This document shows positions 24,356 through 64,000 of a stretch of 64,000 nt of DNA, piece by piece. Within the stretch, counting starts at the first letter, position 1, and every line of letters begins with the position of its first letter. The position numbers and the translations under genes are program-made. This DNA comes from Candidatus Omnitrophota bacterium (GTDB lineage Bacteria; Omnitrophota; Gorgyraeia; JABMRG01), in NCBI GenBank assembly GCA_041650035.1, contig JBAZLY010000002.1, forward strand, positions 15,436-79,435, written 5' to 3'. The notes beneath the pieces were generated by a model. The model was given only the letters and a program-made list of their open reading frames with translations, ran no database searches and had not been told where the DNA came from.

Positions 24356-24392
24356 CTTGGGCCGTGAAAATACCGGGATCAAACAAACACGT

Positions 24393-25031: not shown

Positions 25032-25051
25032 AAAATGAAGCTCATTCCTAA

Positions 25052-25450
25052 ATGAATATTGCCATATATAAAAAGAACATGATCGGGCTTACAGCATTTT
25101 TATTTTTTGGCCTTATTATTTTTTGTTTAATATCCCTGGCACGAAATAACAACAGATCCAACACGATTACCGTTAAAAGCGGCGGCACATTTACCATATC
25201 ACTTGCTTCAAACGCCACTACCGGGTTTACCTGGCAATTTGTCAGGCAAATAGACACAAACCTTTTAGGGCTTGAGGGTTCGCGGTATTTAAGCCCTGGC
25301 ACAGGCCTTGTTGGCGCGGGAGGCAGGCAGGAATGGACATTTAGGGCAAAGAAGCCGGGCAGGGCAGTAATATCTCTTGAATATATCAGGCCATGGGAAA
25401 ACGACAAGGCCTGTGCCAGGGCAAAGAATTTAACAGTTATAATTCGTTAA
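25052..25450 (+). CDS. chagasin/ICP-family (I42) cysteine-protease inhibitor
   Basis: NATTGFTW and GAGG motifs spaced as in the chagasin Ig-like fold; N-terminal TM/signal. Confidence 0.55.
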   Translation: MNIAIYKKNMIGLTAFLFFGLIIFCLISLARNNNRSNTITVKSGGTFTISLASNATTGFTWQFVRQIDTNLLGLEGSRYLSPGTGLVGAGGRQEWTFRAKKPGRAVISLEYIRPWENDKACARAKNLTVIIR

Positions 25451-25628
25451 AAGAGATGGTTGCTTAATGAGCATATGCTAATGAGAGGGTATTAAAAAAG
25501 ATAGAAACAAGCAATCGGACCAAATCTAATCATTCATAAACACGATTTAAGTCCATCAGAAAACCTGTCAGACAAGACTCAACTTCAATCGAGAACCCAT
25601 AAAAAACCCTTTTTCTGCCTCAATCTCT

Positions 25629-25656
25629 ATGTCCTATAATATATCTTATGTTAACT
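25629..25656. other. dif: dif-like XerC/XerD chromosome dimer resolution site
   Basis: ATGTCCTATAATATATCTTATGTTAACT; XerD arm TTATGTTAA identical to E. coli dif; about 23/28 identities to the Bacillus-type dif as I recall it; sits where the plus- and minus-strand gene blocks converge. Confidence 0.5.
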
Positions 25657-25896
25657 ATGCAATGTGAAAAACCCAGCCATAACCCATTATATTACGTAAG
25701 TTATAAAGTTATACATCTCGGTTGTGGATAATACCTAAATAATACCCCTAATGGCGATTAAAACATATCAAGTACTATCAGATATTACCTGCCTTTTATC
25801 ATTGTGGACACGCTAAGGTGATCGTATATTTAAAATTTTAAAATTTTTTTTTGAGCTTGAAACCGGAAAAAATAGCTTATTTTTTGTGGATATTTT

Positions 25897-27204
25897 TTAG
25901 CCGAGGTTTAGAAGCGGGATATTGAGGCGCTGTCTTTTGGTCTCCCCTTTTTGCAGGTTTTTTTGGCGCCAGGAAAGGCTGTTTCTTGGGTGGTTTTTTA
26001 AGCCCTTCCGCAAGGGGTTTTTTGATGATGCCAGATGGATGGTATGCTTGCCGTATTTTTTGGCAATTTCATCAATCATCCTTGAGACCTTTTCTACCTT
26101 TTCTATTCTTATCGCATCATCAAAAAGCGTCCTTTGATACTGCAAGTTTACGGTGATATCTGATAAGACAATGCCCGATGCCCTGTACAGCAGGCCATCT
26201 TTAAAGATATCGTCAAAAAGCCCTGCTAAAATATCTGCGAATTCCATCGTTGATGATGAATGACAGCTCAAGGTTGCCATGAGGCCTGTTGCCTTAAAAT
26301 CCTGCGTTTTTAGATATGCCAGAAGACGTCTCGCGAAAAGGCCGTGACGCCTTAATTTTATGCATGCAGACTCAAGATTTCTTGTAATCTGCGCCTTGAC
26401 AAACAATCTGTTTTTTGATGCCGGCGAAAAGGTCTTTGTCTTGCTTATTGATAAATACTTCTCTTTTCTTAATGTGTTGATTCGATACACATAATGCCCT
26501 CTAAGTTCAAGCCACAATTCCCTGCCTATTTTGCCTAAAATACTCTCCGCAAAATCTAAGGGTTTATTGATATAATCAAAGACATTATTAAGCCCATAAC
26601 GGCGTAAAAGCTCAACCGTATTATGCCCGAAACCGCAGACCTCCTCAAAAGAAGTCTGCTTTAAAAAGCAATGGATCTCATGGCCCGGCAATGCCTTTAT
26701 GCCGGACGGTTTATTACAGCCCGAGCAGAGTTTTGCAAGTGTCTTTGACAGGCTTAGGCCTATTGAGACAGTGATATCCAGCTCTTTTTCGATTCTTTTC
26801 TTTATTAGAAGCGCGATATTCTCATAGCCTGCGTGATAAAGCCTCCTCATACCGGTAATGTCGCAAAATGCCTCATCAATAGAATATTCCTCAACATCGG
26901 GGCTGAATTGCCTTAATATGGAAAACATCCTTTCAGAATAAATACTGTAAAGCTCATAATCACTTGGTATTATAATTGCGTCGGGGATAATCTTCTTAAC
27001 CTCATGCAGGCGTATACCCCTTCCAATGCCTCTGGCCTTTGCCTCATAGCTTGCGCAGGATACTATCCCCCTCTCTTTCCCCGTTATCACGGATTTTCCT
27101 TTTAAAATAGGGCTTCTGGCCTGCTCGCATGAAACGAAAAAGGCATCGCAGTCTACATGCAATATAGCCTTTGGATAGTTTTTAAGGGTTATGAATTGGG
27201 ACAC
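25897..27204 (-). CDS. Y-family DNA polymerase (UmuC/DinB-like translesion polymerase)
   Basis: LHVDCDAFFVSCE and YSIDEAF catalytic motifs; 435 aa; immediately downstream of lexA. Confidence 0.8.
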   Translation of the reverse strand: MSQFITLKNYPKAILHVDCDAFFVSCEQARSPILKGKSVITGKERGIVSCASYEAKARGIGRGIRLHEVKKIIPDAIIIPSDYELYSIYSERMFSILRQFSPDVEEYSIDEAFCDITGMRRLYHAGYENIALLIKKRIEKELDITVSIGLSLSKTLAKLCSGCNKPSGIKALPGHEIHCFLKQTSFEEVCGFGHNTVELLRRYGLNNVFDYINKPLDFAESILGKIGRELWLELRGHYVYRINTLRKEKYLSISKTKTFSPASKNRLFVKAQITRNLESACIKLRRHGLFARRLLAYLKTQDFKATGLMATLSCHSSSTMEFADILAGLFDDIFKDGLLYRASGIVLSDITVNLQYQRTLFDDAIRIEKVEKVSRMIDEIAKKYGKHTIHLASSKNPLRKGLKNHPRNSLSWRQKNLQKGETKRQRLNIPLLNLG

Positions 27205-27208
27205 GTCT

Positions 27209-27790
27209 TTATTTGTATTTTCTTATATTCGCGATAACCACACCGGCTATAATAAGCTCATGCTTAGGTATTATAGTGGGATACTTCTGATTTGCCGCCT
27301 GCAGATAGACCTTTTTGGCCTTTTGCTTAAAATATTTTAATGTCCACTCATTATCAACCCGGGCTATAACAATATCACCGTCTTTTGGGTCAAGGCCTTT
27401 CTGGATAAGGACAAGGTCCCCCTGATGTATGCCAGCCTCTATCATGGAATCGCCCCGGACATTTACAAGGAATGTCGCGTTGGGATTTGACACGAGATAC
27501 TCATCAATGCTTACAACATCCTGAAGCTCTTCTTCAGCGGGACTTGGAAAACCTGCCTGTATTGAGCCCAGTATAGGTACTGCCCTCATTGCCTTTTTAG
27601 GGATAAGCCGGCCTCTGTCATCTTTTTCCAAAAGGCCCGCTTTTATAAGAGCCGATACTCTTTTAAACGCGGCATTCTTTGAGCTTAAACTAAAGATAGA
27701 AAGCATTTCAGAATATGACGGCATTCTTTTTTTCTTAAAGTAAAAACCCTTTATCTTATCTAAGTATAATAAAAGCTTTTCTTTTTTCAT
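27209..27790 (-). CDS. lexA: LexA repressor (S24 peptidase)
   Basis: N-terminal winged HTH, Ala-Gly cleavage site (IQAGFP), Ser (GDSM) and Lys (VIARVDNEWTLKYF) catalytic dyad. Confidence 0.8.
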   Translation of the reverse strand: MKKEKLLLYLDKIKGFYFKKKRMPSYSEMLSIFSLSSKNAAFKRVSALIKAGLLEKDDRGRLIPKKAMRAVPILGSIQAGFPSPAEEELQDVVSIDEYLVSNPNATFLVNVRGDSMIEAGIHQGDLVLIQKGLDPKDGDIVIARVDNEWTLKYFKQKAKKVYLQAANQKYPTIIPKHELIIAGVVIANIRKYK

Positions 27791-27799
27791 GACAGGGAT

Positions 27800-27828
27800 A
27801 TTATAGTGAACGATTGTTCACGTGTCAA
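27800..27828 (-). promoter_or_regulatory. lexA promoter TTGACA-17-TATAAT with an SOS box (GTGAAC-N4-GTTCAC, Cheo-box type) filling the spacer
   Basis: Minus strand reads TTGACAcgtgaacaatcgttcacTATAAT, with the ATG 9 nt downstream; palindrome at 27806-27821. Confidence 0.6.
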
Positions 27829-27875
27829 CAAAAATATGCAAAGGCAACGGCTAAAGGCCCCGGCTACTTAACTCT

Positions 27876-27903
27876 TTGACATTTCTGCCGCTTTTGCTAT
27901 AAT
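27876..27903 (+). promoter_or_regulatory. divergent sigma70 promoter TTGACA-16-TATAAT for dus (leaderless mRNA implied)
   Basis: TTGACA 27876-27881, TATAAT 27898-27903, ATG at 27910. Confidence 0.45.
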
Positions 27904-27909
27904 CATGCC

Positions 27910-28971
27910 ATGCTAAAAATCGGAGACTATACCCTGGAATCAAAACTCATCCTGGCCCCTCTTTCAGGCTGTTCAGACCTGCCATTTAGACTCATATGCA
28001 GGGAGCATGGCTGTAAGTTTGCCTTTTACGAGATGCTTGACGCCCATGGTATAACCTATGGACATAGGCGCACATTGTCAATGCTTGAAACAGACAAAAG
28101 AGACTCCCCCATTGGTGTGCAAATCTTAGGTAATGACCCCGAGAGGGTGCTGGAAGCTGTTCAGATTATATTAAACAATTCTAATTCAAAAATAATTGAT
28201 CTTAATTGTGCCTGCCCGGCTTTAAAAGTCCTTAAGAAAAAATGCGGCGCTTATCTTCTTAAAGAACCGGAACAGGCAGGAAGGATCATTAAAAAACTCT
28301 CCTCCTGCCTCTCTACTCCTATTACAATAAAACTAAGGGCAGGCTGGGGCAGGGAACACCAGAATGAAGGACTATTACTTGCTAAAATAGCCCAGGATAA
28401 TGGCGCAAAAGCAGTGTTTTTCCATGGAAGGAGCTGTTCGCAGGGGTATTCCGGCAAGGCATCATATGAACCCATAAAACAGGCCAAAGAAGCCCTTAAA
28501 ATCCCTGTTATTGGAAGCGGTGATGTATTATCCCCCGAGCTTGCGAAGGATATGCTGGATAGAACTGGCTGTGACGGTGTTTTAATAGCAAGAGGCGCTT
28601 TTGGCGCGCCCTGGATATTTGCGCAGACAGAAAAATATTTAAAAGACGGCCTGCCTTCTTCTCTTGCTTCTTATGAAATAATAGTAAACACTGCCAAACG
28701 CCACATTCAAATCTTTAAAGACTGGAAGGATAGAAAACTTCTTTGCCATAACGAGGAGGCCTCAAATAGGCAACCAAAACAACCAACCTCCCCCGCCCCT
28801 GAAAAATACTATATCGGTCATCTGCGAAAAATAGCTATGTGGTATTCAAAAGGCCTGCCCTACTCTAAAAGAGCCCGCGAGACCATATCATTTGCCAATA
28901 GCTTTGATGAAATCATAGGTATTCTTGACAGGCTTAAGAATGATTATGATATCAAGTGGCTGAAAAGGTAA
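27910..28971 (+). CDS. dus: tRNA-dihydrouridine synthase (DusB-like)
   Basis: LAPLSGCSDLPFR, catalytic Cys region NCACP, TIM-barrel FMN motifs; C-terminal extension with Pro-rich insert. Confidence 0.8.
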   Translation: MLKIGDYTLESKLILAPLSGCSDLPFRLICREHGCKFAFYEMLDAHGITYGHRRTLSMLETDKRDSPIGVQILGNDPERVLEAVQIILNNSNSKIIDLNCACPALKVLKKKCGAYLLKEPEQAGRIIKKLSSCLSTPITIKLRAGWGREHQNEGLLLAKIAQDNGAKAVFFHGRSCSQGYSGKASYEPIKQAKEALKIPVIGSGDVLSPELAKDMLDRTGCDGVLIARGAFGAPWIFAQTEKYLKDGLPSSLASYEIIVNTAKRHIQIFKDWKDRKLLCHNEEASNRQPKQPTSPAPEKYYIGHLRKIAMWYSKGLPYSKRARETISFANSFDEIIGILDRLKNDYDIKWLKR

Positions 28972-29123: not shown

Positions 29124-30071
29124 CTAAACAGAGGCTTCCACTCTTTTCATGACCAGGATGCCCCGGCGCGACATCTCATTCGCGTTTTTAGAGTTCACGT
29201 CGGCAAGCATATGCCGCAGGAGAAATGCCTTGATGCCTAAACCTTCTTTGGCGGACATCTGCGTTAAACCCGCCATACCCTCAACTATATCATCCTCTCT
29301 ATCGAAATTATTGAATATGTAAAGTGTTAACAACATGCTGATGCCGCCTGGCGAATCCCTGCCGAATTCAACAATGTTATTAAGTTCGAATTCATTGCGC
29401 GTGTTTACAAACATCCTGGCAAAGCGGTCGAGCCTTTCCCCGTCGCATATTATACTGCATAGGACATTAAACATAAATTCTTCTTTTGAATCACTTGCGA
29501 ATAGATTAAAAGACAGATTAAGCTGTCGGGCTACGTATCTGCCGTATCCAGCGTTGTCAAATAATATGCCATCGTCCTTCCGGACAGAGGCAAGCTTACG
29601 TTTGAGGCTGTTTCTTTCAAGCCCATTCAGCTTTTTATAAGGACTATACATGAACGAATACCCTGCGCCATTCAAAGACTTAGAGAGTATGCCCAGTTGT
29701 TCCAATAATCTAAGCGATGTCCTGATATCTTTTATTGTGTATTGCGGCTCTCGCTCGCCGGTATACCAGAATTGCCGGATATCCCGAAGCGTTATGCCGT
29801 CTTTTCTACCATAAAAACGCTCTTCCAATATCCCTAATACCTTTAATAACGGTCTCCGTATCGTAGCGGCATCTGAAGAAGCGGATTCTGCAGGCCAGGT
29901 TGTTACAGCGGTCAAACCCCTGACATCATGCGATAACCCGGCAGATACCGGCCTTAACAATCTGTCATGACCCCAGACACAGGCAGGGTTAATAACGCGC
30001 CGCGCATCCTCTTGCGCGAGGATGGGGCGAAAACATGTTAATAATATATAAAAATATATTATGATCATCAA
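29124..30071 (-). CDS. hypothetical secreted protein (315 aa)
   Basis: N-terminal signal-like segment; no family recognised. Confidence 0.5.
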   Translation of the reverse strand: MMIIIYFYILLTCFRPILAQEDARRVINPACVWGHDRLLRPVSAGLSHDVRGLTAVTTWPAESASSDAATIRRPLLKVLGILEERFYGRKDGITLRDIRQFWYTGEREPQYTIKDIRTSLRLLEQLGILSKSLNGAGYSFMYSPYKKLNGLERNSLKRKLASVRKDDGILFDNAGYGRYVARQLNLSFNLFASDSKEEFMFNVLCSIICDGERLDRFARMFVNTRNEFELNNIVEFGRDSPGGISMLLTLYIFNNFDREDDIVEGMAGLTQMSAKEGLGIKAFLLRHMLADVNSKNANEMSRRGILVMKRVEASV

Positions 30072-53770: not shown

Positions 53771-54328
53771 TTATTTATATTTAGTCTTTTTTCCGGCGAG
53801 ATCAAATATAAAGGTGCCAGCGGTCTCTTCAGGCAGCCAAAATGTAAGAGATGTGTACGTACTTTCAACGGCCTTGACCAGAAACCCTCCCGTGCAGGAT
53901 TTTTCCTCAATGGAATCTCTCAAATAATCGCTTGGGATGAGCCCCAGGGCCGTCACAATTATTCCCGATAATATCACTCCCCTGCCAAAACCAATCACCG
54001 CGCCGCCTAATCTTTCAAGCTGGGGTATAAGCTGCACATTCATTATCTTTAGTAATAACGCGAACCCATATTTGAATATCAGCCTGATAAGCTGGATGAT
54101 TACAATAAAGCATAAAAACTGCGAAAGCCAGACAGGCAATTCAAAATTCACGACAAGGACATTCGCCGTGCGGGCATACCATATTACCGCGCAAACAAGG
54201 CTTACCAATATGCCCAAAAAATTAAACAACTCCGCGGTGAGCCCGAGTTTGGCCCCGATATATACAGCCCTCAAGCTTATGATTAGCACTATTACATCAA
54301 GCCAATTAATATTTTTTAAGATTTCCAT
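53771..54328 (-). CDS. cvpA: CvpA-family membrane protein
   Basis: NWLDVIVLIISL N-terminus, 4 TM helices; about 185 aa. Confidence 0.75.
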   Translation of the reverse strand: MEILKNINWLDVIVLIISLRAVYIGAKLGLTAELFNFLGILVSLVCAVIWYARTANVLVVNFELPVWLSQFLCFIVIIQLIRLIFKYGFALLLKIMNVQLIPQLERLGGAVIGFGRGVILSGIIVTALGLIPSDYLRDSIEEKSCTGGFLVKAVESTYTSLTFWLPEETAGTFIFDLAGKKTKYK

Positions 54329-54497: not shown

Positions 54498-56009
54498 TTA
54501 CTCTTTTATGAACTTGCTCTTATCCGCATATAATGAATATTTAGCAAAAACCTTAATTTTCGAAATTAATTTATTAACTTGAGCAGGAATTTGATCAACA
54601 TCACTATTCATAACCACATAAAAATCTATTTTTTCATCATTCGCATATTTTAATAGTTCATTCTCATCAAATCCATTAAGCATTTTATTTGCTATCCCGC
54701 CACTATAAAAATCTGCCGAATAAGGCACCTGACAAAGATAAATTAATTCAGAGCCATCCTCCTTAGCTTTATCAAACGTCTTGCATATTATTTTATGAGA
54801 TTTCTTTAGCCCTTCATTAGGCGCAATAGTGAATAAGGCAACAGTAAAAAGAAAAGGCATAAAACACACAAAGAAAATAAAGACCTTAAAACTTGTAAAC
54901 CATTTGACTTTAGCAGCAACATTTAAAGCCTGATTATATTCAATCAGATAGACTATCAACACAGCAAATGCTGGTAAACCAGGCAACACATAGGTTATCA
55001 GAATATTCCCTGCTAAAGTAAAAAATAATAAGGGTGACAGAAACCACAACAAAAAATACGAAACCCAACTATCCTTGAATAGGCAATCGATAATTTTCTT
55101 TTTTCTAACAGTATACTGAATATTAAAAATGAAAATACCGAGCCATGGCAAGGCTGCCAAAATAAAAAACAACCAAATCATACCTCGAGGAAAATCATGG
55201 ACACTGCCATACAAATCCCCGCTCCAGGCATGGTAAATAAAGCGCATGAAATGCTCACCTATAAAAAAATATCTTAAGAAACCGGGAGTTTTGATTTCAG
55301 CAGCAATATACCATGGTAAGGATATTGCCAGCATTAAAATAGTTCCCCCAATCCAGGGAAAACTGCGTATCGCCTTAGCCCACTTTTTTTGAAATGATAC
55401 CCATACAATAATAGGAAATAAAGTTAAAACAACACCAACCGGCCCCTTAGATAGCAAGCTTAAACCTATTCCTAAAAAAAATGCATATCCCCAAAGAAGC
55501 TTATGACGACTAACCTTTTCTTCTATCGCTAACAAAAATGCACTCATTGATAAGGTAATTGAAAACGATAACGCAGGATCAGTCATAACTCCACCTGACA
55601 TAATATAAAATAACCCCACCGTTAATAATACTAAGCATGACTTTAATGCAAACACATTATTTCTAAAATTCTTTGCTGATAAAAACAAAAAGATCATATT
55701 GCCTATTGCAAATAACAAAGAAGGCAATCTAGCTGCGGTCTCCGAAACACCGAATAATTTAAAGCTCAATGCCGTTGCCCATATAGAAAGCGGCGGTTTA
55801 GCCCAAAAGGGAATTCCCGGGTCAGTTTGAGGTGTAATCCAATTATTCGTTGCAAGCATCTCACGAGCAATTTCAGCATAACGAGATTCCGTTTTATCCA
55901 TTAAAGGGCATGCTCCTAGTGCAATAAAACGTAAGCAAATAATAGCAAATAACAAAAACAAAAAAAATTTCACTTCTGAAAAATTATGGCTTGCTGTCAG
56001 TTTATTCAT
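54498..56009 (-). CDS. GT-C membrane glycosyltransferase, family 39/83 (ArnT/PMT-like)
   Basis: About 12 TM segments, N-terminal RYAEIAREML...WAKPPL motif, soluble C-terminal domain. Confidence 0.7.
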   Translation of the reverse strand: MNKLTASHNFSEVKFFLFLLFAIICLRFIALGACPLMDKTESRYAEIAREMLATNNWITPQTDPGIPFWAKPPLSIWATALSFKLFGVSETAARLPSLLFAIGNMIFLFLSAKNFRNNVFALKSCLVLLTVGLFYIMSGGVMTDPALSFSITLSMSAFLLAIEEKVSRHKLLWGYAFFLGIGLSLLSKGPVGVVLTLFPIIVWVSFQKKWAKAIRSFPWIGGTILMLAISLPWYIAAEIKTPGFLRYFFIGEHFMRFIYHAWSGDLYGSVHDFPRGMIWLFFILAALPWLGIFIFNIQYTVRKKKIIDCLFKDSWVSYFLLWFLSPLLFFTLAGNILITYVLPGLPAFAVLIVYLIEYNQALNVAAKVKWFTSFKVFIFFVCFMPFLFTVALFTIAPNEGLKKSHKIICKTFDKAKEDGSELIYLCQVPYSADFYSGGIANKMLNGFDENELLKYANDEKIDFYVVMNSDVDQIPAQVNKLISKIKVFAKYSLYADKSKFIKE

Positions 56010-56116: not shown

Positions 56117-58222
56117 TTAGGAATTGGAGGCGTCAAGAAACAACCCGGCATACTCCTGATTCCCATAGGCGGCGATAAAGGCATCGACTACCAAAGGATC
56201 GAAACAGCTTCCCTTTTTTTCTTTAAGCCTTTCGAGAGCCTGCCGCCTGTCGATAGGTTCTCCTTCCAGATGCGTTGAGGTCATAGCGTCAAAGGCATTG
56301 CAAACAGCTATAACGCGCGATGCCATAGGTATGGCGTTACCCTTCAATCCGTCAGGGTAACCCGTGCCGTCAAAATTCTCATGATGATACCGGATAACAT
56401 CAAAACTGTCTCCGATCTCCTTGATAGGCTTTAATATATTCTGGCCTATAATAACATGCTCCTTGAAATGTTCCTTTTCCTCTTCGGTTAAAACAGAATG
56501 TTTTTTTAGTATCCTGTCCGGTATGCCTATTTTGCCTACATCATGCAAAAGCGAGGCCACATGAAGCGTCTCATAAAAAGAATCGCTAAAATTGACGTAA
56601 GGAAGCAGCCTTTCGAGTTCTTTAGCCGTTGCCATCGCGTAATCGCTCAATCTCTGGGTATGGGCATAAGTATATCCGTCCTTTGAATCAATGGCAAAAC
56701 TGAATGCCGATGCCGCGTCTAAAAACAATGCGTGCTCTTCCTTATACAACGCGTCTAATTTGCGTATCCTCTCTTTGAGTTCTTCATACATCCGTGCGTT
56801 CTCAAAAGCAATGGCGGCATTATTGGCCAAGGTGGATAAAAGCGAAAAATCATCGCTCGTGTAGATATTTCCAGATAGTTTCGCTCCAAGCACTATGAAA
56901 CCGATAATCTGGCCCCTTAAAAAACTCGGGACACATAAGGCAGCGCCTGATCTTTCCATAGCCATCCTTATGTGGTCGAGGGTCTTTTTAAGGACGGGCC
57001 TCTGCGGAAAGATCTTGTCACCCTGTATCCAGCTTAAAACACTCTCATAACTTATAGGCTCTTTTTTTTCAACGAGCCATTTAACCAGCGGATTATCCGC
57101 GTCTATCTTATCCAGGGTATCCTGCCCTTTAAAACCCCTGCGCACCTCTCGGATATAGGCATTTGCCGTTTTATTGTAAATATATGCTGAACTTCCGGTG
57201 ATCCTTATCTCTTTTGATATAAATCTTACCATCAGGTTCAGAAGTTTTCTTGTATCGGTTATTAGTGTCATACCTTTGGCAACTTTTTTTAAAACCAGCA
57301 TATAATCATATCCGCGTTGATACAAGAACGCGTCGGTAAATCTGGCAAGAAATTCCTCCAGTGTCCTTATAAAAACGGTAAGGATAAAAACCGCGGCTAT
57401 GGGCAGTATCCATCTGTTCATATTAAAAGTAACGGATAGGTGCCGCTGAAGGATAAAGACAAACGCCACGAAGCTTCCAACGCTTGCCCCGTAAAGTGTT
57501 GAGAATATCAGCGTCCGCCTCTTTATGACCTCAACACCCATAAGACGTACCACGTATGTGGCAATAGCTACAAAAAGATTAGCGAGGGCAACAAAATACA
57601 GGGCCATCGGACCTATAACAGGAACGGAAATACCGTAAATTGTAAAAAACATCAAGCTGCCGCCGCTTAGCCCGCATACCCCCGCTATCGTAACATATTT
57701 CATCTGGCGTTTGCCTATATCGCTAAGCTTGCCAAACGATTTATGCATAAGATAATGCGCGTAAATAGGCAAAGCGGCAAAAAACAGCATAAAAACCGGG
57801 TGAAGTATGCCGGGGTCGTTAAAATTCAGGCCAAGTTTAAATGACACGCTCTTAACAATCAACGGCGTGAAACTTAAACATGAAAAAATCACCGCAATCG
57901 TATAACCCGCGGACAAGGCCTTTCTGCTTTTGCCAGTCAAGCCTAAAAGTTTTACGATAAAATGGAAATAAAATATAGGAACAAAAGAGACCCCGATATA
58001 AGAGACCCTGGCAAAAAATAACGCATAATCCTTATCGTTGAACAGGCAGAATAATAAAGTACATAACGAAAACTCCGCGATAGAAAGCATCAGCAGATAA
58101 TAACTTCTTACGATCTCACCTCTCCTACCGCGAAAATAAATAAGGCTTCCGAGCAAAAGAGTGATAACAAGCGTAAAGACGGAACCTGCCAAATAATGTA
58201 ATCTGTAATAACACATACTCAA
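56117..58222 (-). CDS. 7TM sensor - GAF - HD-GYP c-di-GMP phosphodiesterase (paralog 1)
   Basis: Multi-pass N-terminal domain, central GAF, C-terminal HD-GYP (HDVGKIG...HHENFDGTGYPDGL). Confidence 0.75.
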   Translation of the reverse strand: MSMCYYRLHYLAGSVFTLVITLLLGSLIYFRGRRGEIVRSYYLLMLSIAEFSLCTLLFCLFNDKDYALFFARVSYIGVSFVPIFYFHFIVKLLGLTGKSRKALSAGYTIAVIFSCLSFTPLIVKSVSFKLGLNFNDPGILHPVFMLFFAALPIYAHYLMHKSFGKLSDIGKRQMKYVTIAGVCGLSGGSLMFFTIYGISVPVIGPMALYFVALANLFVAIATYVVRLMGVEVIKRRTLIFSTLYGASVGSFVAFVFILQRHLSVTFNMNRWILPIAAVFILTVFIRTLEEFLARFTDAFLYQRGYDYMLVLKKVAKGMTLITDTRKLLNLMVRFISKEIRITGSSAYIYNKTANAYIREVRRGFKGQDTLDKIDADNPLVKWLVEKKEPISYESVLSWIQGDKIFPQRPVLKKTLDHIRMAMERSGAALCVPSFLRGQIIGFIVLGAKLSGNIYTSDDFSLLSTLANNAAIAFENARMYEELKERIRKLDALYKEEHALFLDAASAFSFAIDSKDGYTYAHTQRLSDYAMATAKELERLLPYVNFSDSFYETLHVASLLHDVGKIGIPDRILKKHSVLTEEEKEHFKEHVIIGQNILKPIKEIGDSFDVIRYHHENFDGTGYPDGLKGNAIPMASRVIAVCNAFDAMTSTHLEGEPIDRRQALERLKEKKGSCFDPLVVDAFIAAYGNQEYAGLFLDASNS

Positions 58223-58285: not shown

Positions 58286-60355
58286 CTATTCTATCTTGCC
58301 CTGCTCAAAGGCCTTTAAAAAGGCCGCGACTACATAAGGGTCGAATTGCGCAGACGCGTTTTTTTGGATCTCATCCCTTGCCGTTAAAGGAGGAAGTCCT
58401 TTTCTATACGGTCTATCGGATGTCATAGCGTCATAGGTATCGGCTACGGAGATGATCCTCGCCATAAGCGGTATTTCATCCGATTTGAGACCTTCAGGAT
58501 AACCCTTACCGTCATATCTTTCATGATGATATCTGATGCCACCGACAAGATCCTTTAATCCCGCGATATGCGAGACGATCTCCGCACCCAGCACGGGGTG
58601 TTTCTCTATCTCTTTTCTTTCTTCAGGCGTAAGCTGCGCGGGTTTATGCAATATATCGTCAGGCACGCCTATCTTTCCTATGTCATGCAAGACCCCCGTT
58701 ATCTGCAGTCTGTGCCTGAAAAAGGCATCTTTATCTATTTCATCCATGGCACCCATAAAATCAAGTATCACCAAGCTGATATTAGTGACCCTCTGCGAAT
58801 GGCCGTGCGTATAGGGGTCTCTGGCGTCTATGGCGGCGGCGAATGCCACCGACGAATGCATGAATAGCCTGTGCTCTCTTTTGTAAAGATTTTCAAGCTC
58901 AAACGCCTTTCTGTCTATCTCAAAATATAACTGCGAATTTTTAAGCGCGATAGCCGCCTCGTTGGATAGAGCGCTGAACAGATCCATATCATCCTGCGAG
59001 AAAAAATCACCGTTTTTCTTTTCCCCGAGTATAAGCACGCCTAAAAGATCATCCCTGAAAAAACAGGGCACGCTCAATGCCGCGTGAAGGGTAGACATAG
59101 TGTCTTTTATCTGGAACAGGTCAGACTTAAGCGACCCGGGTATTCGTCTTTGGTTAAAATTATTCATCCACTTCAAGACATCATCCAAAGCGAGCGGTCT
59201 TTTTTTTTCGCTAAGCCACATTATCAGGGCATTTTCAGACCTCAAACTTATCAGGCCATCGCCGATGTCACCCCTTGAGGCCTTCAGAACATACGAAGAG
59301 GATCTGCTATCAAACAGGAATACAGCGGCATTTGCGAGCTTAAGCTTCGCGGATATTATGTGCACAATAAGGTTTAGCAGTTTTTTTGGGTCACGAATCT
59401 TCGACATGCCTTCGGCCGCGTCCTGCAAGGTCTTCTGGTATTCGTACTTCCTGCGAAAAAGGAATCTGCCGGCAACATTATATATAGTTTTTTCAACCGG
59501 ACGGATTACGAGGGTTACAAGCAGAAGTGAAAACGCGGGGACAATCCAACGATTATCGCCTATATAAGGCTTAAGGAATTGTTCACCGGCTATAATCGCG
59601 AGCATAAAAAGTCCTATCGAAAAACCGAATATACCTGCGAATATCGCCGTCTCACGTATAATAATCTCAATATCCATAAGACGATGACGTATTATAGCAT
59701 AGGCAATAATCATAAGCGAAATTGAAATAAAAACAAAACCAGGCGGATATATCTCAAAACCATAATTAACAGCGAAATCAATTCCTGCCAAAAAATATAG
59801 CCCAAAAGCAACTAACACATACTTGAGTTGTTTTTTTAAAAAAAGATTAGTTTCATTATAAAATTTCCCAATTGTTTTATATGAACCTCTACCAGCTAAG
59901 AAAAATAAAAAAATAATATAAAAAATATGCAGAACTCCTGCTTTCGGGTAATACCCCCATATATTTGAATAATGCCCATTAATAAAAATACGTGTCATCC
60001 ATAGAAAATAAATAAAAAACAAGCCAATAACATAAAATATTCTTATCGCTACGTATTCTTTTTTTGCTCCAATAAAAGATATAGCAAAATTAAAATATAC
60101 GATCGGTAAAAATATAATAAACGAATACCCAATTTTAATAACCAAATCAACAGGCAATAAATCAGGAAAACCAAACAATATAAACCATGAAAATTGCCAT
60201 CCAAACGTCGTTAAACTTAATAAAAAAAATAACCGATTCGTATGAAAACGAGAATTTTTTATTATCACAAAAATTCCCATTAGAAGAAACAAAATTGAGC
60301 TTAACAAAGGTGGGTATGAATATAAATTTAAATGCATATTATATATATTGGACAC
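58286..60355 (-). CDS. 7TM sensor - GAF - HD-GYP c-di-GMP phosphodiesterase (paralog 2)
   Basis: Same architecture as paralog 1; HDIGKIG...HHERYDGKGYPEGL; start overlaps thioesterase stop by 17 nt. Confidence 0.75.
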   Translation of the reverse strand: MSNIYNMHLNLYSYPPLLSSILFLLMGIFVIIKNSRFHTNRLFFLLSLTTFGWQFSWFILFGFPDLLPVDLVIKIGYSFIIFLPIVYFNFAISFIGAKKEYVAIRIFYVIGLFFIYFLWMTRIFINGHYSNIWGYYPKAGVLHIFYIIFLFFLAGRGSYKTIGKFYNETNLFLKKQLKYVLVAFGLYFLAGIDFAVNYGFEIYPPGFVFISISLMIIAYAIIRHRLMDIEIIIRETAIFAGIFGFSIGLFMLAIIAGEQFLKPYIGDNRWIVPAFSLLLVTLVIRPVEKTIYNVAGRFLFRRKYEYQKTLQDAAEGMSKIRDPKKLLNLIVHIISAKLKLANAAVFLFDSRSSSYVLKASRGDIGDGLISLRSENALIMWLSEKKRPLALDDVLKWMNNFNQRRIPGSLKSDLFQIKDTMSTLHAALSVPCFFRDDLLGVLILGEKKNGDFFSQDDMDLFSALSNEAAIALKNSQLYFEIDRKAFELENLYKREHRLFMHSSVAFAAAIDARDPYTHGHSQRVTNISLVILDFMGAMDEIDKDAFFRHRLQITGVLHDIGKIGVPDDILHKPAQLTPEERKEIEKHPVLGAEIVSHIAGLKDLVGGIRYHHERYDGKGYPEGLKSDEIPLMARIISVADTYDAMTSDRPYRKGLPPLTARDEIQKNASAQFDPYVVAAFLKAFEQGKIE

Positions 60356-60749
60356 CTCTTATAGCGATCTCGGGAGGAATGGGTATTACTGAACCATTCT
60401 GTCCAACAAAACCAATTTTTTGCCGACCTTCACCGTGTATTTCGTTGGTAACTTTATTAACAAATGTAAAAATAAGTTCAAATGTGGTAATTTTTGGATT
60501 TTTAACCTCTACCTTTATTTCAATATCATCAAACAACAAAGCCTCTTTCTTAAATTTCATACTAGCCTCTATCGTAACCATTTTGATCTTTTTATTTATA
60601 AAAAACATCGGGTCCGGCGTAACCTGCCTAAAAAATTCCTCTCTAGCAACACCTTGCCAATAAAAATAATTTGCGAAATAAACATTGCCAAATAAATTGG
60701 TATCTCGTAAATATACACGGATATTGATTGAGAAATTTTTTTTTGCCAT
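60339..60749 (-). CDS. hotdog-fold acyl-CoA/acyl-ACP thioesterase (YbgC/4HBT-like)
   Basis: 136 aa; N-terminal R.DTNLFGNVYFANY as in 4HBT thioesterases. Confidence 0.6.
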   Translation of the reverse strand: MAKKNFSINIRVYLRDTNLFGNVYFANYFYWQGVAREEFFRQVTPDPMFFINKKIKMVTIEASMKFKKEALLFDDIEIKVEVKNPKITTFELIFTFVNKVTNEIHGEGRQKIGFVGQNGSVIPIPPEIAIRGVQYI

Positions 60750-60752
60750 AGC

Positions 60753-60998
60753 CTATTCCCTTCCAAGGTTATTTTTTATGTAACAAATTAAATCATTCAC
60801 GGTCTTAATACCTTGTGTGTCTTCGGTTGAAATTTCAAAATTAAACTTCTCTTTCACAATAAAGGATAATTCCGCGAAACCAAAAGAATCAATAGCTAAG
60901 TCTTCAATTAATAGCAAATCGTTTTTTATTTTCGCGCAATCAATATCAAGCAACTCTGAAAACATACCTTTAACAGTTTCCTCTATATTAATATTCAC
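60753..60998 (-). CDS. acyl carrier protein (dedicated ACP)
   Basis: DLAIDSFGFAEL phosphopantetheine-attachment motif; GTG start after AGGAGG; the longer ORF-track version would overlap the KAS 3-prime end. Confidence 0.6.
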   Translation of the reverse strand: MNINIEETVKGMFSELLDIDCAKIKNDLLLIEDLAIDSFGFAELSFIVKEKFNFEISTEDTQGIKTVNDLICYIKNNLGRE

Positions 60999-61017
60999 AA
61001 GTCCTCCTAATTTCCTT

Positions 61018-62250
61018 TTACATCTTTGAAAAAAGCAGGCACGCGTTATTATTGCCAAATCCAAATGAATTGGAAAGGGCAATGTCCACGTTGCGTTTAA
61101 GATGCTTTTTCATGATGTGATTAAGCCTACAGTCCTCATCAGGGGTTTCAAGGTTAACCGTAGCGTGCATCTTGCCTGATATTATTGTCAAGGCGCATAC
61201 AGCTGCCTCAATCGCTCCAGCGGCGCCTAAGGTATGGCCTATCATAGACTTAGTGGAACTTACCGGTATATGTTGCGCGTCTTCCTTAAACACATTGACT
61301 ATCGCCTTGGCCTCCGCCTTATCATTCGCGATAGTGGAGGTCCCGTGGGCATTTATATAATCAACGTCTTTTGGCGTAACAGCCGATTCGTTAAGGCATA
61401 ACCTCATAGCCCTTGCCACGTCGATAGCATCAGGCCGCGGCATAACGATATGATAAGCGCCTGATGTCACGGAATAGCCTTTTATCTCGGCATATATGTC
61501 GGCCTTTCGCGCGAGCGCGTGGTCAAAGGATTCCAGTATCAGGACAGCCGCTCCTTCCCCCATCACAAAACCATCTCTATCTTTGTCAAAAGGCCTTGAT
61601 GCGGATTCCGGATTATCATTTCGCCTGCTCATTACACTTAATTTATCAAAACCCAAGAAATTATATCTCATTATAGGCGAGTCTGTCCCACCTGCTATCA
61701 TAATTTTAGCCCTTCCCCGACGTATTGTGTCAAATGCCTGGCCGATACTATGAGTGCCTGACGAACATGCCGTGCAAATGGTTAAATTCGGGCCTTGGGC
61801 ATTATGCACAATGGCAATCTGATTCGCGACGGAATTTGGCATTATTTTGGGGATAGAGACAGGATTGACCGCAGTATTGCCACCATCTATTATATTTACA
61901 ATTTGTGTCTCCGCGAACACCATGCCTCCTAGGCCTGTGCCTACGCATACACCGGTATATTTAGGATCCGGGTTGTTTAAACGGCTGTCTTCCATGGCCA
62001 TAGAGGCGGCGGCAATGGCAAACTGCGCGAATTTATCGGAGCGCCGCGCAATTATCTTATCCATGTATTGAGTGGGGTCAAAATTATCTATTGTGGAGGC
62101 TATCTTGCAGTTATACTCACTGACATCAAAGGCGGTTATTCTCCTGATATTGGATTTTCCGGACAAGCAATTTTCCCAAAAGATATCCTTGCCTATGCCG
62201 ATTGGGGTCACTAATCCGATTCCGGTAATTACAACCCTCTTATCATTCAA
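61018..62250 (-). CDS. beta-ketoacyl-ACP synthase II family (FabF/FabB-like)
   Basis: Active-site Cys (CTACSSG), His (HGTS, GHTLGAAG) triad; 410 aa. Confidence 0.85.
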   Translation of the reverse strand: MNDKRVVITGIGLVTPIGIGKDIFWENCLSGKSNIRRITAFDVSEYNCKIASTIDNFDPTQYMDKIIARRSDKFAQFAIAAASMAMEDSRLNNPDPKYTGVCVGTGLGGMVFAETQIVNIIDGGNTAVNPVSIPKIMPNSVANQIAIVHNAQGPNLTICTACSSGTHSIGQAFDTIRRGRAKIMIAGGTDSPIMRYNFLGFDKLSVMSRRNDNPESASRPFDKDRDGFVMGEGAAVLILESFDHALARKADIYAEIKGYSVTSGAYHIVMPRPDAIDVARAMRLCLNESAVTPKDVDYINAHGTSTIANDKAEAKAIVNVFKEDAQHIPVSSTKSMIGHTLGAAGAIEAAVCALTIISGKMHATVNLETPDEDCRLNHIMKKHLKRNVDIALSNSFGFGNNNACLLFSKM

Positions 62251-62253
62251 GGC

Positions 62254-62964
62254 TTATTCCCCTTTTTGCACCATCCCATCGGCAATATGTATCACCTTAT
62301 CGCCGTATTTGAGCTGGCGGTCATCATGAGTAACAAGAAACACGGTAGCGGATCTTTCCTTGTTTATCTTTGCCAGCAGGTCAAGTATTATCCTGCCGTT
62401 ATCAGAGTCAAGGCTGGCGGTAGGCTCATCACAGAGAAGTATGGCAGGGTTGTTGATAAGACTTCTGGCAACCGCTACCCTCTGTTTCTCACCCTCCGAC
62501 AGATGGGCAGGCCTGTGACGCGTTCTCTCCTTCATCCCGACAAGCTCCAGCATGCCTTCCGCTTTTGCCAAAAGGCTTGATGAATAACCTGCTTTGGCGA
62601 CGGCGGGCAAAAACACGTTCTCCAATGCCGTGAGTTCATCCAGGAGATAATACTTCTGGAAGATAAAACCTATATTGTTCAACCTGAATTCCGCCCTTTT
62701 GACACGGTTAAGTAAAACGGTGTCATGCCCGTCCAGCGCGATCGTGCCACAGGTAGGCACATCTATAAGCCCCAAAAGGTTTAAAAGAGTAGTCTTACCG
62801 CTGCCCGATGGGCCGAATAATATCGAAAACTCGCCGCTTTTTATCTCGAGATTAACGTCCTTTAATGCCCGCACAACGGTACTACCGAGATGATAATCCT
62901 TCTTCAGATTCTTTACGCTTATTATAACCCTATTGTTTTTGGAATTAAATTTAGTCTTAACCAT
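62254..62964 (-). CDS. ABC transporter ATP-binding protein (LolD/MacB/DevA type)
   Basis: Walker A GPSGSGKTT, signature LSEGEKQR, Walker B LLCDEPT. Confidence 0.85.
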   Translation of the reverse strand: MVKTKFNSKNNRVIISVKNLKKDYHLGSTVVRALKDVNLEIKSGEFSILFGPSGSGKTTLLNLLGLIDVPTCGTIALDGHDTVLLNRVKRAEFRLNNIGFIFQKYYLLDELTALENVFLPAVAKAGYSSSLLAKAEGMLELVGMKERTRHRPAHLSEGEKQRVAVARSLINNPAILLCDEPTASLDSDNGRIILDLLAKINKERSATVFLVTHDDRQLKYGDKVIHIADGMVQKGE

Positions 62965-64000
62965 TAGTCGCCTCTTATAACCTTGATTATATTCTCTTTC
63001 CCGCTCTTTACCGCGTAATAAACGCTTGCCATAAAAGACACACCCAGGAAAAGCGCGGTCGCGTAGATATAACTGTTTATCTCAAACATCGGATAAAGAT
63101 CCCCGAAAGGCATTACGATAGGATGGGCTTTAAGATACATCTGCAACAGACAATAAAGACCTGTCCCGGTAACTACTCCTATCACGGCAAACAATATCCC
63201 CTCAATGATAAAGAACGTTAAAAATATCCTGCCTTTTATGCCGATAGCCCTTAGGATACCTGTTGTTCTGCGTTTTTTCTGTGTATTGTAAAACACGATA
63301 AACGCGACCAATATTGCCGCGCAGATAATGCTTACGCCAAAAGTGATAATGCTTATAAGGTTAAAACCGTAAACAAGGTCATCTGTCCCGTAATCATCGC
63401 GGTCCTTCCAGTGTTTCAACTCCACGTCAAGATTGTAAGGCTTATACATGCTGGCGCCTTCCTGATCGATCTTCATATCATCCTTAAGGCGTATGAACAC
63501 ACTTGATGACCTATCCTGCAGTGTCGCAACATTTCTTAAGGTCTGCAAAGGTATAAAGATGCTGTTATTAGCTATGTAATCCCTGAAATCAGCAACACCT
63601 ACTATCTTGACATATTTGTCCTTATAGACATCTTTATTGAACTTGTCTATATTGTATTCTTTGATGAATATGCCCTTCGCGGTGTCTTCAAGCGCGATAT
63701 CCTCATTAATAGGTATCTTTAATTTAAAACGCCTCTTTAAGATCTTTCCCAATATTATCTCTTCCGAAACCGGCCCTGAAAAATATCTGCCCTCAACGAT
63801 ACTATTCTTCAGGTCCATAACCTGTTCGCCGAACTCAAGCCCCCAGGCCATGGTGACTATCCTTGAACCCTTATACTCCAAAACGCAGGGCATCTCAAGC
63901 ACAGGGGTCATCTCGCCTATCGTCGTATTAAGGCCTATAGCGGCCATAACACGCTGTGTGTCATATATATACGATTGCCCCCTTAAAGGCGTAGCGTAGA
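62964..64000 (-). CDS. FtsX/MacB-type ABC permease (LolE/DevC-like), 5-prime end beyond the window
   Basis: Large periplasmic MacB_PCD-like domain and C-terminal 3-TM FtsX domain; frame open to the window edge; stop overlaps the ATPase start. Confidence 0.7.
   Translation of the reverse strand, partial: YATPLRGQSYIYDTQRVMAAIGLNTTIGEMTPVLEMPCVLEYKGSRIVTMAWGLEFGEQVMDLKNSIVEGRYFSGPVSEEIILGKILKRRFKLKIPINEDIALEDTAKGIFIKEYNIDKFNKDVYKDKYVKIVGVADFRDYIANNSIFIPLQTLRNVATLQDRSSSVFIRLKDDMKIDQEGASMYKPYNLDVELKHWKDRDDYGTDDLVYGFNLISIITFGVSIICAAILVAFIVFYNTQKKRRTTGILRAIGIKGRIFLTFFIIEGILFAVIGVVTGTGLYCLLQMYLKAHPIVMPFGDLYPMFEINSYIYATALFLGVSFMASVYYAVKSGKENIIKVIRGD

Follow-up and report, generated by a model that had tools for sequence, protein, structure and literature searches.

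A conserved ketosynthase, acyl carrier protein and thioesterase cassette next to 7TM-GAF receptors in an Omnitrophota operon

The operon and its extent

The window analysed here is a stretch of 64,000 nucleotides (64 kb) from a Candidatus Omnitrophota bacterium (assembly GCA_041650035.1, contig JBAZLY010000002.1, positions 15,436 to 79,435). At its right-hand end lies a minus-strand operon with genes for an FtsX/ABC transporter pair, a β-ketoacyl-ACP synthase (KAS), an acyl carrier protein (ACP) and a hotdog thioesterase (TE), followed by genes for two membrane receptors, HD1 and HD2. We find that the KAS, ACP and TE genes, together with a downstream receptor that has a seven-transmembrane (7TM) and a GAF domain, constitute a conserved cassette that is inherited as a unit. 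The six genes from the permease to HD1 were confirmed by the listing of open reading frames (ORFs) and by Pfam and NCBIfam scans, and with HD2 the genes are, in order of transcription:

62964..64000, minus strand, running past the window edge: FtsX-family permease (type VII ABC, MacB/LolCE fold), residues 63-407 of 407; Pfam FtsX 2e-10
62254..62964, minus strand: ABC ATPase, partner of the permease; ABC_tran 4e-31
61018..62250, minus strand: FabF-clade KAS (KAS II type), 410 aa, TTG start; TIGR03150
60753..60998, minus strand: ACP, 81 aa, GTG start; PP-binding 7.7e-6, ACP_SdgA_C
60339..60749, minus strand: hotdog TE, 136 aa, 4HBT_2; of CalE7/DynE7/SgcE10 type by PDB sequence matches and predicted fold
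58286..60337, minus strand: HD1, 7TM-GAF-HD-GYP receptor 1; Pfam HisKA_7TM, GAF, HD_5
56117..58222, minus strand: HD2, paralogous 7TM-GAF-HD-GYP receptor 2; Pfam

A first-pass annotation of this DNA had described a tightly packed minus-strand series, and indeed all six genes and their close junctions can be read in the sequence. It had placed the first five genes at most 3 nt apart or overlapping, which is correct for three of the four junctions: the permease and ATPase genes overlap by 1 nt in the sequence TAATG, through which the ATPase is translationally coupled to the permease, and spacers of 3 nt separate the ATPase from the KAS and the ACP from the TE. The KAS and ACP genes, however, are 19 nt apart, with an AGGAGG inside the spacer ahead of the ACP GTG start at 60998; an overlap appears solely with the longest ACP ORF, from TTG 61082, the first 28 residues of which match no ACP homologue. 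Similarly, the 17-nt overlap described between TE and HD1 exists solely if HD1 starts at GTG 60355, but becomes a 1-nt spacer with the gene-caller start at ATG 60337. The operon had also been said to end in an HD-GYP sensor; HD1 is such a sensor, but the paralogue HD2, which had gone unmentioned, then follows after 63 nt.

We read the extent of the operon from two longer identical copies, L001 (9.2 kb, from Logan) and L093 (part of a 156-kb ENA contig). The 5' part had been thought to lie outside the window, but the missing portion is only the first 62 codons of the permease gene, including the first transmembrane helix (the full 407-aa gene is at L001 458-1681). Upstream of the permease, both copies have an AT-rich gap of 157 nt, in which promoter-like hexamers cluster, and then nadD, proA, proB, obg, rpmA and rplU. 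The promoter and terminator scan was overall near chance (35 promoter-like sites versus 30.8 in shuffled sequence), and the local cluster in the AT-rich gap lends weak support to a start there. Because only 62 permease codons are missing and the nadD block lies upstream, the operon starts with the permease and is essentially complete in the window. Extending the contig past position 64000, as had been suggested, to look for ketoreductase (KR), dehydratase (DH), acyltransferase (AT), membrane fusion protein (MFP) and LolA-like genes gave none; these and genes for MMPL and a chain-length factor (CLF) are absent within 10 kb on either side of the operon.

A conserved cassette and its enzymes

Look-ups of KAS homologues (51-80% identity) or TE homologues (52-59% identity) independently recovered the order KAS, ACP, a variable gene and a 7TM-GAF receptor in eight related loci, in which the genes stand as follows (REC, receiver domain; HK, histidine kinase; HMGR, HMG-CoA reductase; TA, toxin-antitoxin):

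L002: REC-protein, KAS, ACP, TE, 7TM-GAF-HK, REC
L003: rpmF, plsX, fabH, fabD, NMO/HTH, KAS, TA pair, HMGR-like, ACP, HD-GYP, HD-GYP
L006: FtsX, ABC, KAS, ACP, HMGR-like, HD-GYP, HD-GYP
L089: HK, REC, fused REC-KAS, ACP, TE, 7TM-GAF-HK, REC, HD-GYP
L092: HTH_17, KAS, ACP, unknown 511-aa protein, 7TM-GAF-HisKA
L095: patatin, KAS, ACP, TE, 7TM-GAF-HK (the TE, P0136, is named Margulisiibacteriota by NCBI)
L097: KAS, ACP, TE, 7TM-HK
L176: KAS, ACP, NAD_binding_4 reductase, 7TM-GAF-HK

The genomic surroundings of the cassette differ, with nadD/PMT in the window, patatin in L095, Icd-Mdh-Lpd in L089 and plsX-fabH-fabD in L003, which indicates that it moves as a unit. We also scanned metagenomes with the TE alignment, annotated the resulting 78 loci by phmmer with the cassette queries, and counted the neighbours of the TE among evaluable loci:

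TE identity at least 48%: sensor directly downstream 19/19, ACP upstream 15/15, KAS upstream 12/12
TE identity 38-47%: sensor downstream 14/20, ACP upstream 4/23, KAS upstream 0/18
TE identity below 38%: sensor downstream 2/22, ACP upstream 0/21, KAS upstream 2/18

The coupling of KAS, ACP and TE to an HD-GYP-type sensor, which had been proposed from the window alone, is borne out by the 7TM-GAF sensor that follows the TE in every evaluable locus of the first class.

The gene between the ACP and the receptor, here called the release slot, encodes a TE in the window, L002, L089, L095 and L097, an HMGR-like protein in L003 (12503-13711) and L006 (7180-8394), a NAD_binding_4 reductase of the terminal reductase or fatty acyl reductase (FAR) type in L176 (2334-3515), and in L092 (11514-13049) the 511-aa protein, which has no family match. 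Since TE, HMGR-like and NAD_binding_4 enzymes all act on thioesters, the slot would correspond to a chain-release step on the carrier protein. We read the HMGR-like protein as a putative reductive release enzyme; a place in the mevalonate pathway was considered and rejected, as the protein scores 312 bits against an HMGR cutoff of 442, no HMG-CoA synthase gene lies nearby, and the slot is common to TE and NAD_binding_4 enzymes. Thioester reductases resembling acyl-ACP reductase or PigE-N are found nearby in L002 and L089.

A number of loci vary this arrangement. The TE-receptor pair can also sit beside a housekeeping carrier, as in L128 (142-7843), where TE, 7TM-GAF-HK and REC-HD-GYP genes lie directly beside canonical acpP-fabF (116.8 and 645 bits). 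At a site marked by Icd-Mdh-Lpd-LplA-HTH_17, the full REC-KAS-ACP-TE cassette is present in L089 (545-12282) and only a PilZ-TE gene in L131 (728-6230), which suggests that KAS and ACP were gained or lost at one chromosomal site. In L003 (11313-12330), and also in L004 and L005, a toxin-antitoxin-like pair of an NTP_transf_2/Polbeta gene and a 149-aa ORF splits the cassette between KAS and the HMGR-like gene. A short HTH_17 ORF of the excisionase type commonly stands ahead of the cassette (L092 9828-9995, L089 4960-5193; also at L104, L106, L110, L115, L125, L127, L131, L140 and L141), is fused to the C-terminus of an NMO/FabK-like protein in L003 (8725-10014) and to KAS in P0013, and may be a cassette-specific regulator. 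An assignment of the L003 protein as FabK was rejected (142 bits against a cutoff of 453, with a C-terminal excisionase-type HTH); the fabK matches upstream of many cassettes are likewise to the HTH_17 segment and represent no enoyl reductase.

The assignment of the TE to the hotdog family, and to a type other than housekeeping, is retained; sequence comparison refines it to a predicted chain-release enzyme of the CalE7/DynE7/SgcE10 type, known from enediyne pathways, instead of YbgC. Phmmer against PDB sequences gave 6.9e-15 for SgcE10 (4i4j), 3.2e-13 for CalE7 (2w3x) and 2.1e-12 for DynE7 (2xfl), compared to 1.4e-4 for YbgC. In Foldseek, the AlphaFold2 (AF2) model of the TE (pLDDT 90.7) matches enediyne TEs best (5vpj, 2w3x, 4i4j, 2xfl and 9ccr, TM-score 0.85-0.89), but YbgC structures are close behind in fold score, and the distinction between the two types is therefore carried by sequence. 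A YbgC reading was rejected: the TE scores 49.8 bits on TIGR02799 (cutoff 141.35), the position of the canonical YbgC/4HBT catalytic Asp is Asn in the window TE and its relatives, and no tol-pal genes lie nearby. Residues Asn18, Tyr28 and Arg36 align with CalE7 Asn19, Tyr29 and Arg37, which were reportedly found to be catalytic by Kotaka et al. in 2009. In an alignment of 18 sequences Asn18 and Arg36 do not vary, and Tyr28 hardly does; among 150 cluster representatives, 131 have the Asn, 146 the Arg and 109 the Tyr (with Phe in 23). Some TE homologues carry the JGI annotation 'enediyne biosynthesis thioesterase'.

The enediyne pairs of TE and iterative type I enediyne polyketide synthase (PKSE), namely CalE8-CalE7, SgcE-SgcE10 and DynE8-DynE7, resemble the cassette in that the release enzyme is of the same family by sequence, predicted fold and Asn/Tyr/Arg, and in that the TE lies beside a ketosynthase (KS) and an ACP. 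Distant TE homologues in L162, L168 and L172 do lie beside giant KS-AT synthases, and several TEs of the class below 38% identity show this classical PKSE-TE arrangement. There is, however, no PKSE within 10 kb of the window TE, whose partners are the 410-aa KAS and the 81-aa ACP. The cassette thus has a discrete FabF-type KAS and a free-standing ACP, not a type I protein of the order KS-AT-ACP-KR-DH-phosphopantetheinyl transferase (PPTase); it lacks enediyne tailoring genes, is tied to a membrane receptor, and occurs in Omnitrophota and relatives, whereas the enediyne pairs belong to actinomycetes.

A further parallel comes from the methyl-ketone TEs (tomato MKS2 and S. meliloti SMc03960), hotdog proteins of the 4HBT/YbgC superfamily that hydrolyse 3-oxoacyl-ACP, after which decarboxylation gives a volatile infochemical, as in the formation of 2-tridecanone from 3-oxomyristoyl-ACP (PMC12794305). 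By analogy, such chemistry may apply to the window TE as well, although MKS2 and SMc03960 resemble YbgC, keep the canonical Asp, take their substrate from the housekeeping pool of ACP and are not accompanied by a KAS, ACP or receptor of their own. An influence of a hotdog TE on c-di-GMP has a precedent as well (PMC5479800).

The ACP is non-canonical and is predicted to be dedicated, in agreement with the first-pass annotation. It scores 53.6 bits on the AcpP model TIGR00517 and four other cassette ACPs score 57.2-63.2 bits, all below the cutoff of 70.45, which makes five lineages in all; the canonical AcpP of L128 scores 116.8 bits. The phosphopantetheine serine is present, in a motif G(I/M)DSF (AIDSFGF in the window) that replaces the canonical GADSLD. 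Between the window and L003 the ACPs are 38% identical and the KAS proteins 64%, which marks the ACP as fast-evolving. It is unlikely to be the sole housekeeping AcpP.

The identity of the KAS as a KAS II is confirmed, with 524.2 bits on the fabF model TIGR03150 (cutoff 493.75) and the catalytic motifs ICTACSSG (Cys), NAHGTST (His) and IGHTLGAAG (His) in the translation, as well as a C-terminal loop of the GFGG type (NSFGFGNNN); we take the triad and loop positions to be those of E. coli FabF. The canonical FabF beside acpP in L128 reaches 645 bits. A protein listed at NCBI under a Candidatus Omnitrophota MAG matches the window KAS at 100% identity. A KAS phylogeny, which had been proposed as a check, separates the cassette KAS proteins as a clade from 28 housekeeping FabF of many phyla in 100/100 neighbour-joining (NJ) bootstraps. 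This outgroup consists of generic FabF genes (43-50% identity) obtained by a KAS scan of genome contigs; the scan matched universal FDKDRDGF-type motifs and yielded generic FabF only, with no Omnitrophota context among the matches listed. No other fab genes were found in the 64-kb window (tblastn of L003 plsX, fabH, fabD and NMO; Pfam on 40 ORFs) or in the 6.7 kb beyond it. The pair resembles FabF/AcpP of type II fatty-acid synthesis (FAS) in the score of the KAS on the FabF equivalog model, its Cys-His-His triad and the adjacency of KAS and ACP, but differs in the low score and the DSF (for DSLD) of the ACP, in the order KAS then ACP, in the lack of fabD, fabG and fabZ nearby in the window, and in the REC fusions found in relatives of the cassette.

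Receptors, signalling fusions and the transporter pair

HD1 has a HisKA_7TM membrane domain, a GAF domain and an HD-GYP domain. The two window receptors match HD_5 at 1.5e-36 and 3.9e-33, with motifs intact in both (HDIGK and HHERYDGKGYP in HD1, HDVGK and HHENFDGTGYP in HD2), and the HD-GYP matches among PDB sequences are the phosphodiesterases 5z7c, 4mcw and 4r8z. HD1 and the TE-adjacent histidine kinase of L002 are 38% identical over 469 aa of 7TM-GAF, after which HD1 continues as HD-GYP and the kinase as HATPase; HD1 and HD2 are 32% identical over their full length, and the 7TM part of HD1 is nearer to the L002 kinase than to HD2. The receptors of the window and L003 are 40% (HD1-HD1) and 39% (HD2-HD2) identical, and the pair is kept in order in L003 and L006; by these comparisons it is old and ordered. 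The receptor input module is conserved while its output swaps, being HD-GYP in the lineage of the window and a histidine kinase in most others.

In sister lineages the cassette enzymes are themselves fused to signalling domains. A REC domain is fused ahead of a complete KAS of the FabF type, giving a protein of about 533 aa, in L089 (10001-11608), L105, L106, L115 and L091; these proteins include P0023, P0029, P0055 and others, and their REC is similar to the receiver found in REC-HD-GYP regulators (80.9 bits, NosR-family model). To our knowledge, no receiver-ketosynthase fusion has been described. With a profile of the TE alignment, an exhaustive search gave 65 cluster representatives at E ≤1e-30, about half of which have an N-terminal extension. 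PilZ together with 4HBT_2 was found in 10/10 of the extended TEs that were tested (among P0220-P0267), and a seed profile finds PilZ in 32/65. Genes for PilZ-TE proteins lie in L120 (7578-8474), L131 (5472-6230), L137 (1104-1964), L138, L139 and L144, usually with a 7TM-GAF kinase next and no KAS-ACP upstream; the 7TM-GAF receptor follows in L120, L131, L137, L138 and L139. Because of the REC-KAS and PilZ-TE fusions, the cassette enzymes of these lineages would be direct targets of signalling output. The PilZ-TE fusions also implicate c-di-GMP independently of the HD-GYP domains, which agrees with the tie to c-di-GMP that had been suggested. Proteins with PilZ and MshEN domains recur around both the cassette and the FtsX-ABC loci (L091 11633-12523; L092 4007-4396 and 15012-16385; L177 10231-11852), which suggests dense c-di-GMP wiring in the phylum Omnitrophota.

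The permease and ATPase had been described as a LolDE/DevCA-type exporter that partners the private KAS, ACP and TE, a description that our results do not sustain. The permease scores 50.4 bits on LolCE (TIGR02212, cutoff 362.45), far below the cutoff, and the ATPase 212.5 bits on LolD (cutoff 307.75) and 202.3 bits on DevA (cutoff 295.8), and the pair is not a canonical LolCDE. In Pfam the permease matches FtsX only, among PDB sequences its matches to MacB and LolF are marginal (LolF 9e-4), and its family is narrow, with 35 homologues found, which JGI labels lipoprotein-release permeases. The AF2 model of a 91%-identical homologue (P0185) has LolE (9rlc_E, TM-score 0.68) and MacB (5gko, 0.65) as its best fold matches, at 14% identity. 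Like type VII ABC systems (LolCDE/LolF-D, MacB and DevCA), the pair combines a four-transmembrane FtsX permease with a large periplasmic domain and a separate ATPase, and the modelled permease fold fits LolE and MacB; unlike them, it is only about 14% identical to solved members, misses all curated subfamily cutoffs, and has a single permease gene with no MFP, LolA or DevB nearby. We rejected both a LolCDE or LolF-D assignment, with the cutoffs missed and no LolA-like gene within 10 kb, and a DevBCA glycolipid exporter, with no HlyD/MFP and no polyketide synthase, including any of the Hgl type, within 10 kb; the resemblance to heterocyst glycolipid export that had been noted is lost with the latter.

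The distribution of the pair is also different from that of the cassette. At 50% identity it stands among holin-like, NUDIX, HAD and PilZ genes without a KAS; the window, L098 and L006 are the only loci where it adjoins the cassette, in L002 it lies about 1 kb past the receptor-REC pair of the cassette, and it is absent from the other cassettes examined. On these grounds we regard the pair as a separate type VII ABC unit, co-transcribed here but no defining part of the cassette. Most likely it is a Lol/MacB-like transporter, independent of the cassette, whose co-transcription arose in the subclade of the window, and it may have a very divergent Lol role, with which the modelled fold is compatible. 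A role of the cassette in lipid export is weakly supported.

The remainder of the 64-kb window consists of housekeeping genes (Pfam on 40 ORFs). After the sensors come an ArnT/PMT-like lipid-linked glycosyltransferase (54498-56009; 153 bits, short of the cutoff of the ArnT model) and CvpA (53771-54328); L006 and L093 share the PMT-CvpA-NIF3-DnaG-RpoD block in synteny, and it is probably housekeeping context outside the cassette. A glycosyltransferase gene resembling monogalactosyldiacylglycerol (MGDG) synthase (5746-6891) overlaps by 4 nt a 406-aa ORF without a Pfam match (6888-8108). At about 24000-28000 the GC skew changes sign, and near 25-27 kb gene orientation turns from plus to minus (convergent); this region, which holds genes similar to UmuC/DinB (25897-27204) and to S24 LexA/UmuD (27209-27790), could be a replication terminus or reflect only coding-strand bias. 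Four ORFs of 179-315 aa (2982-3521, 15870-16688, 18946-19599 and 29124-30071) have no Pfam family at E ≤1e-6.

A candidate signalling circuit and its alternatives

We hold with moderate confidence that at its core the operon encodes an acyl-chain cassette coupled to signalling, as distinct both from a pathway for lipid export and from plain fatty-acid synthesis. In the mechanism we propose, housekeeping FabD and AcpS would load the private ACP with malonate, and the KAS would condense malonyl-ACP with an acyl primer from primary metabolism. Since the cassette has no KR, DH or enoyl reductase (ER), the product on the ACP would probably remain a 3-oxoacyl or little-processed chain. The CalE7-type TEs of enediyne pathways hydrolyse and decarboxylate β-oxo or β-hydroxy acyl-ACP, and the window TE, with Asn/Tyr/Arg instead of a carboxylate, would hydrolyse and probably decarboxylate its substrate to a free hydrophobic acid or methyl ketone. 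This lipid would partition into the membrane and be read by HD1 and HD2, altering the hydrolysis of c-di-GMP. Through REC-KAS and PilZ-TE, the enzymes of sister lineages would receive feedback from the signalling output, which would close the loop between signal synthase and receptor. We advance more tentatively, as a possibility short of an even chance, that such loci form an unrecognised and widespread class of lipid-signal circuit, in which the product of KAS, private ACP and release enzyme, a small hydrophobic acid, ketone, aldehyde or alcohol, is read by the adjacent 7TM-GAF receptor with second-messenger or phosphorelay feedback on the enzymes.

Several points weigh against this proposal. 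What goes beyond the conserved cassette, its coupling to a receptor, the swaps and the fusions is what we infer from them. In the window, the KAS lacks REC and the TE lacks PilZ, and the link to the receptor there consists of adjacency and operon structure. In the TE branch at 38-47% identity, the TE-sensor pair occurs without a KAS (0/18), so that a private KAS and ACP are not obligatory. Cassette KAS proteins from other lineages score 554-575 bits on TIGR03150 and all those tested pass the cutoff; they may also serve primary FAS, that of the window perhaps as the sole housekeeping FabF, the L003 orthologue (64% identity) sits at the fabF position after plsX-fabH-fabD, and the KAS clade could merely mirror organismal phylogeny. 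Among PDB sequences the HD-GYP domain is best matched by a phosphodiesterase specific for 3'3'-cGAMP, which counts against c-di-GMP as the nucleotide of HD1 and HD2; c-di-GMP is nonetheless the likely one, and the PilZ-TE fusions of relatives point to it over cGAMP. Finally, the arrow may run in either direction, the product being sensed by the receptor or the receptor controlling the enzymes, and the two are compatible as a feedback loop.

If the arrow runs only from the receptor, the cassette would serve membrane or envelope lipid remodelling: the 7TM-GAF receptor would sense the state of the envelope, and the KAS-ACP-release unit would be a regulated output making a structural acyl chain, controlled by c-di-GMP or phosphorylation, loosely as DesK/DesR control a desaturase, with the ABC pair and the ArnT/PMT-like protein delivering or attaching the lipid. 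This amounts to the earlier 'specialised lipid' idea, but with signalling running the other way, and we regard it as a serious rival, although a rather unlikely one. The fusions speak for it, since REC on the KAS and PilZ on the TE make the enzymes recipients of signalling output; L089 has a PlsC-like acyltransferase, an MGDG synthase, a lipid A acyltransferase and a family 2 glycosyltransferase (GT2) as neighbours, a patatin gene precedes the L095 cassette, ArnT/PMT-like genes lie downstream of HD2 in both the window and L006, and the FtsX/ABC pair is, judging from the junctions, co-transcribed with the cassette in the window. However, these neighbouring lipid genes differ between lineages, the PMT-CvpA-NIF3-DnaG-RpoD block is housekeeping synteny, and the exporter is unlinked to the cassette outside one subclade. 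Moreover, a free acid, ketone, aldehyde or alcohol would serve poorly as a direct substrate of the acyltransferases of membrane lipids, whose acyl donors are acyl-ACP, acyl-CoA or acyl-phosphate, and strict, often overlapping adjacency of TE and receptor is more typical of synthase/receptor pairs.

It is improbable, in our judgement, that the locus is ordinary housekeeping, with a divergent KAS and ACP as the only FabF and AcpP of the genome, a YbgC-like editing TE, an ABC pair acting as LolCDE or LolF-D sorter, and sensors that are neighbours by synteny. The KAS does pass the FabF equivalog cutoff, its L003 orthologue directly follows rpmF-plsX-fabH-fabD, the 64-kb window holds no other fab gene and hence no local competing FabF, the permease fold is nearest to LolE with homologues labelled lipoprotein-release permeases, and Omnitrophota metagenome-assembled genomes (MAGs) are reported to encode fatty-acid synthesis (PMC8542988). 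Yet the ACP, which is fast-evolving, stays below the AcpP cutoff in five lineages, the TE has the enediyne-type Asn for the catalytic Asp and 49.8 bits against a YbgC cutoff of 141, and the LolCE and LolD cutoffs are widely missed. Passive synteny does not predict a cassette with receptor that, going by source labels, spans two or more phyla and that occurs in differing surroundings, and reductive enzymes in the TE slot or REC and PilZ fusions make no sense for bulk FAS.

The pathway that the first-pass annotation had favoured, self-contained synthesis and export of a specialised lipid in the manner of DevBCA/Hgl or aryl polyenes, we consider very improbable. The FtsX-ABC genes are tightly co-transcribed with KAS-ACP-TE in the window, L098 and L006, and the ATPase is similar to DevA and LolD. 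Against this stand the missed DevA cutoff, an exporter pair that is independent at 50% identity and absent from most cassettes, hence no consistent partner, and the lack of further biosynthetic genes upstream or of any MFP, KR, DH, CLF, AT, LolA-like or MMPL gene within 10 kb on either side. An aryl-polyene cluster was rejected on similar grounds, with one KAS, one ACP and one hotdog gene and the other components absent within 10 kb.

For the signalling-coupled cassette, the closest known logic, by analogy, is that of the diffusible signal factor (DSF)/Rpf system or of CqsA/CqsS. In the former (RpfF, RpfC and the REC-HD-GYP protein RpfG), a lipid derived from acyl-ACP is coupled to a membrane sensor with HD-GYP as the final output, and the split form of L089 and L128 (7TM-GAF-HK, REC, HD-GYP) has a logic like that of RpfC/RpfG. 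The analogy is functional only: there is no crotonase-fold RpfF and no RpfB here, no crotonase-family gene was found in the operon or the related loci examined, the sensor input is HisKA_7TM and GAF and not of the RpfC type, and in the window HD-GYP is fused to the receptor, with no phosphorelay. In the α-hydroxyketone quorum-sensing systems CqsA/CqsS and LqsA/LqsS, the synthase gene adjoins that of a multi-pass membrane receptor which reads a hydrophobic, ketone-type signal, and this gene-pair logic resembles that of the cassette. CqsA, however, is a PLP-dependent acyl-CoA transferase and not a KAS/ACP/TE set, and the receptors of these systems are unrelated kinases with six transmembrane helices. 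Full-text literature searches found no account of a KAS-ACP-TE/7TM-GAF cassette. The cassette is real, each of its parts is of a known family, and the combination is apparently undescribed.

If such loci do form a circuit with feedback on the enzymes, the activity of a thioesterase would answer directly to c-di-GMP, and that of a fatty-acid condensing enzyme directly to a response-regulator domain; we know of neither a c-di-GMP-gated thioesterase nor a receiver-gated condensing enzyme, and PilZ-thioesterases and receiver-ketosynthases would be new effector classes for c-di-GMP and two-component systems. With the cassette, the enediyne-type hotdog TEs extend far beyond antibiotic biosynthesis, and it is a candidate source of ligands for the large and so far ligand-less family of HisKA_7TM-GAF receptors. 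The labels that annotation pipelines now give its genes, FabF, ACP, 'acyl-CoA thioesterase' and 'lipoprotein-release permease', hide the cassette. If the proposed mechanism holds, uncultivated Omnitrophota, and at least one lineage labelled Margulisiibacteriota, would have a lipid-based signalling circuit tied to c-di-GMP.

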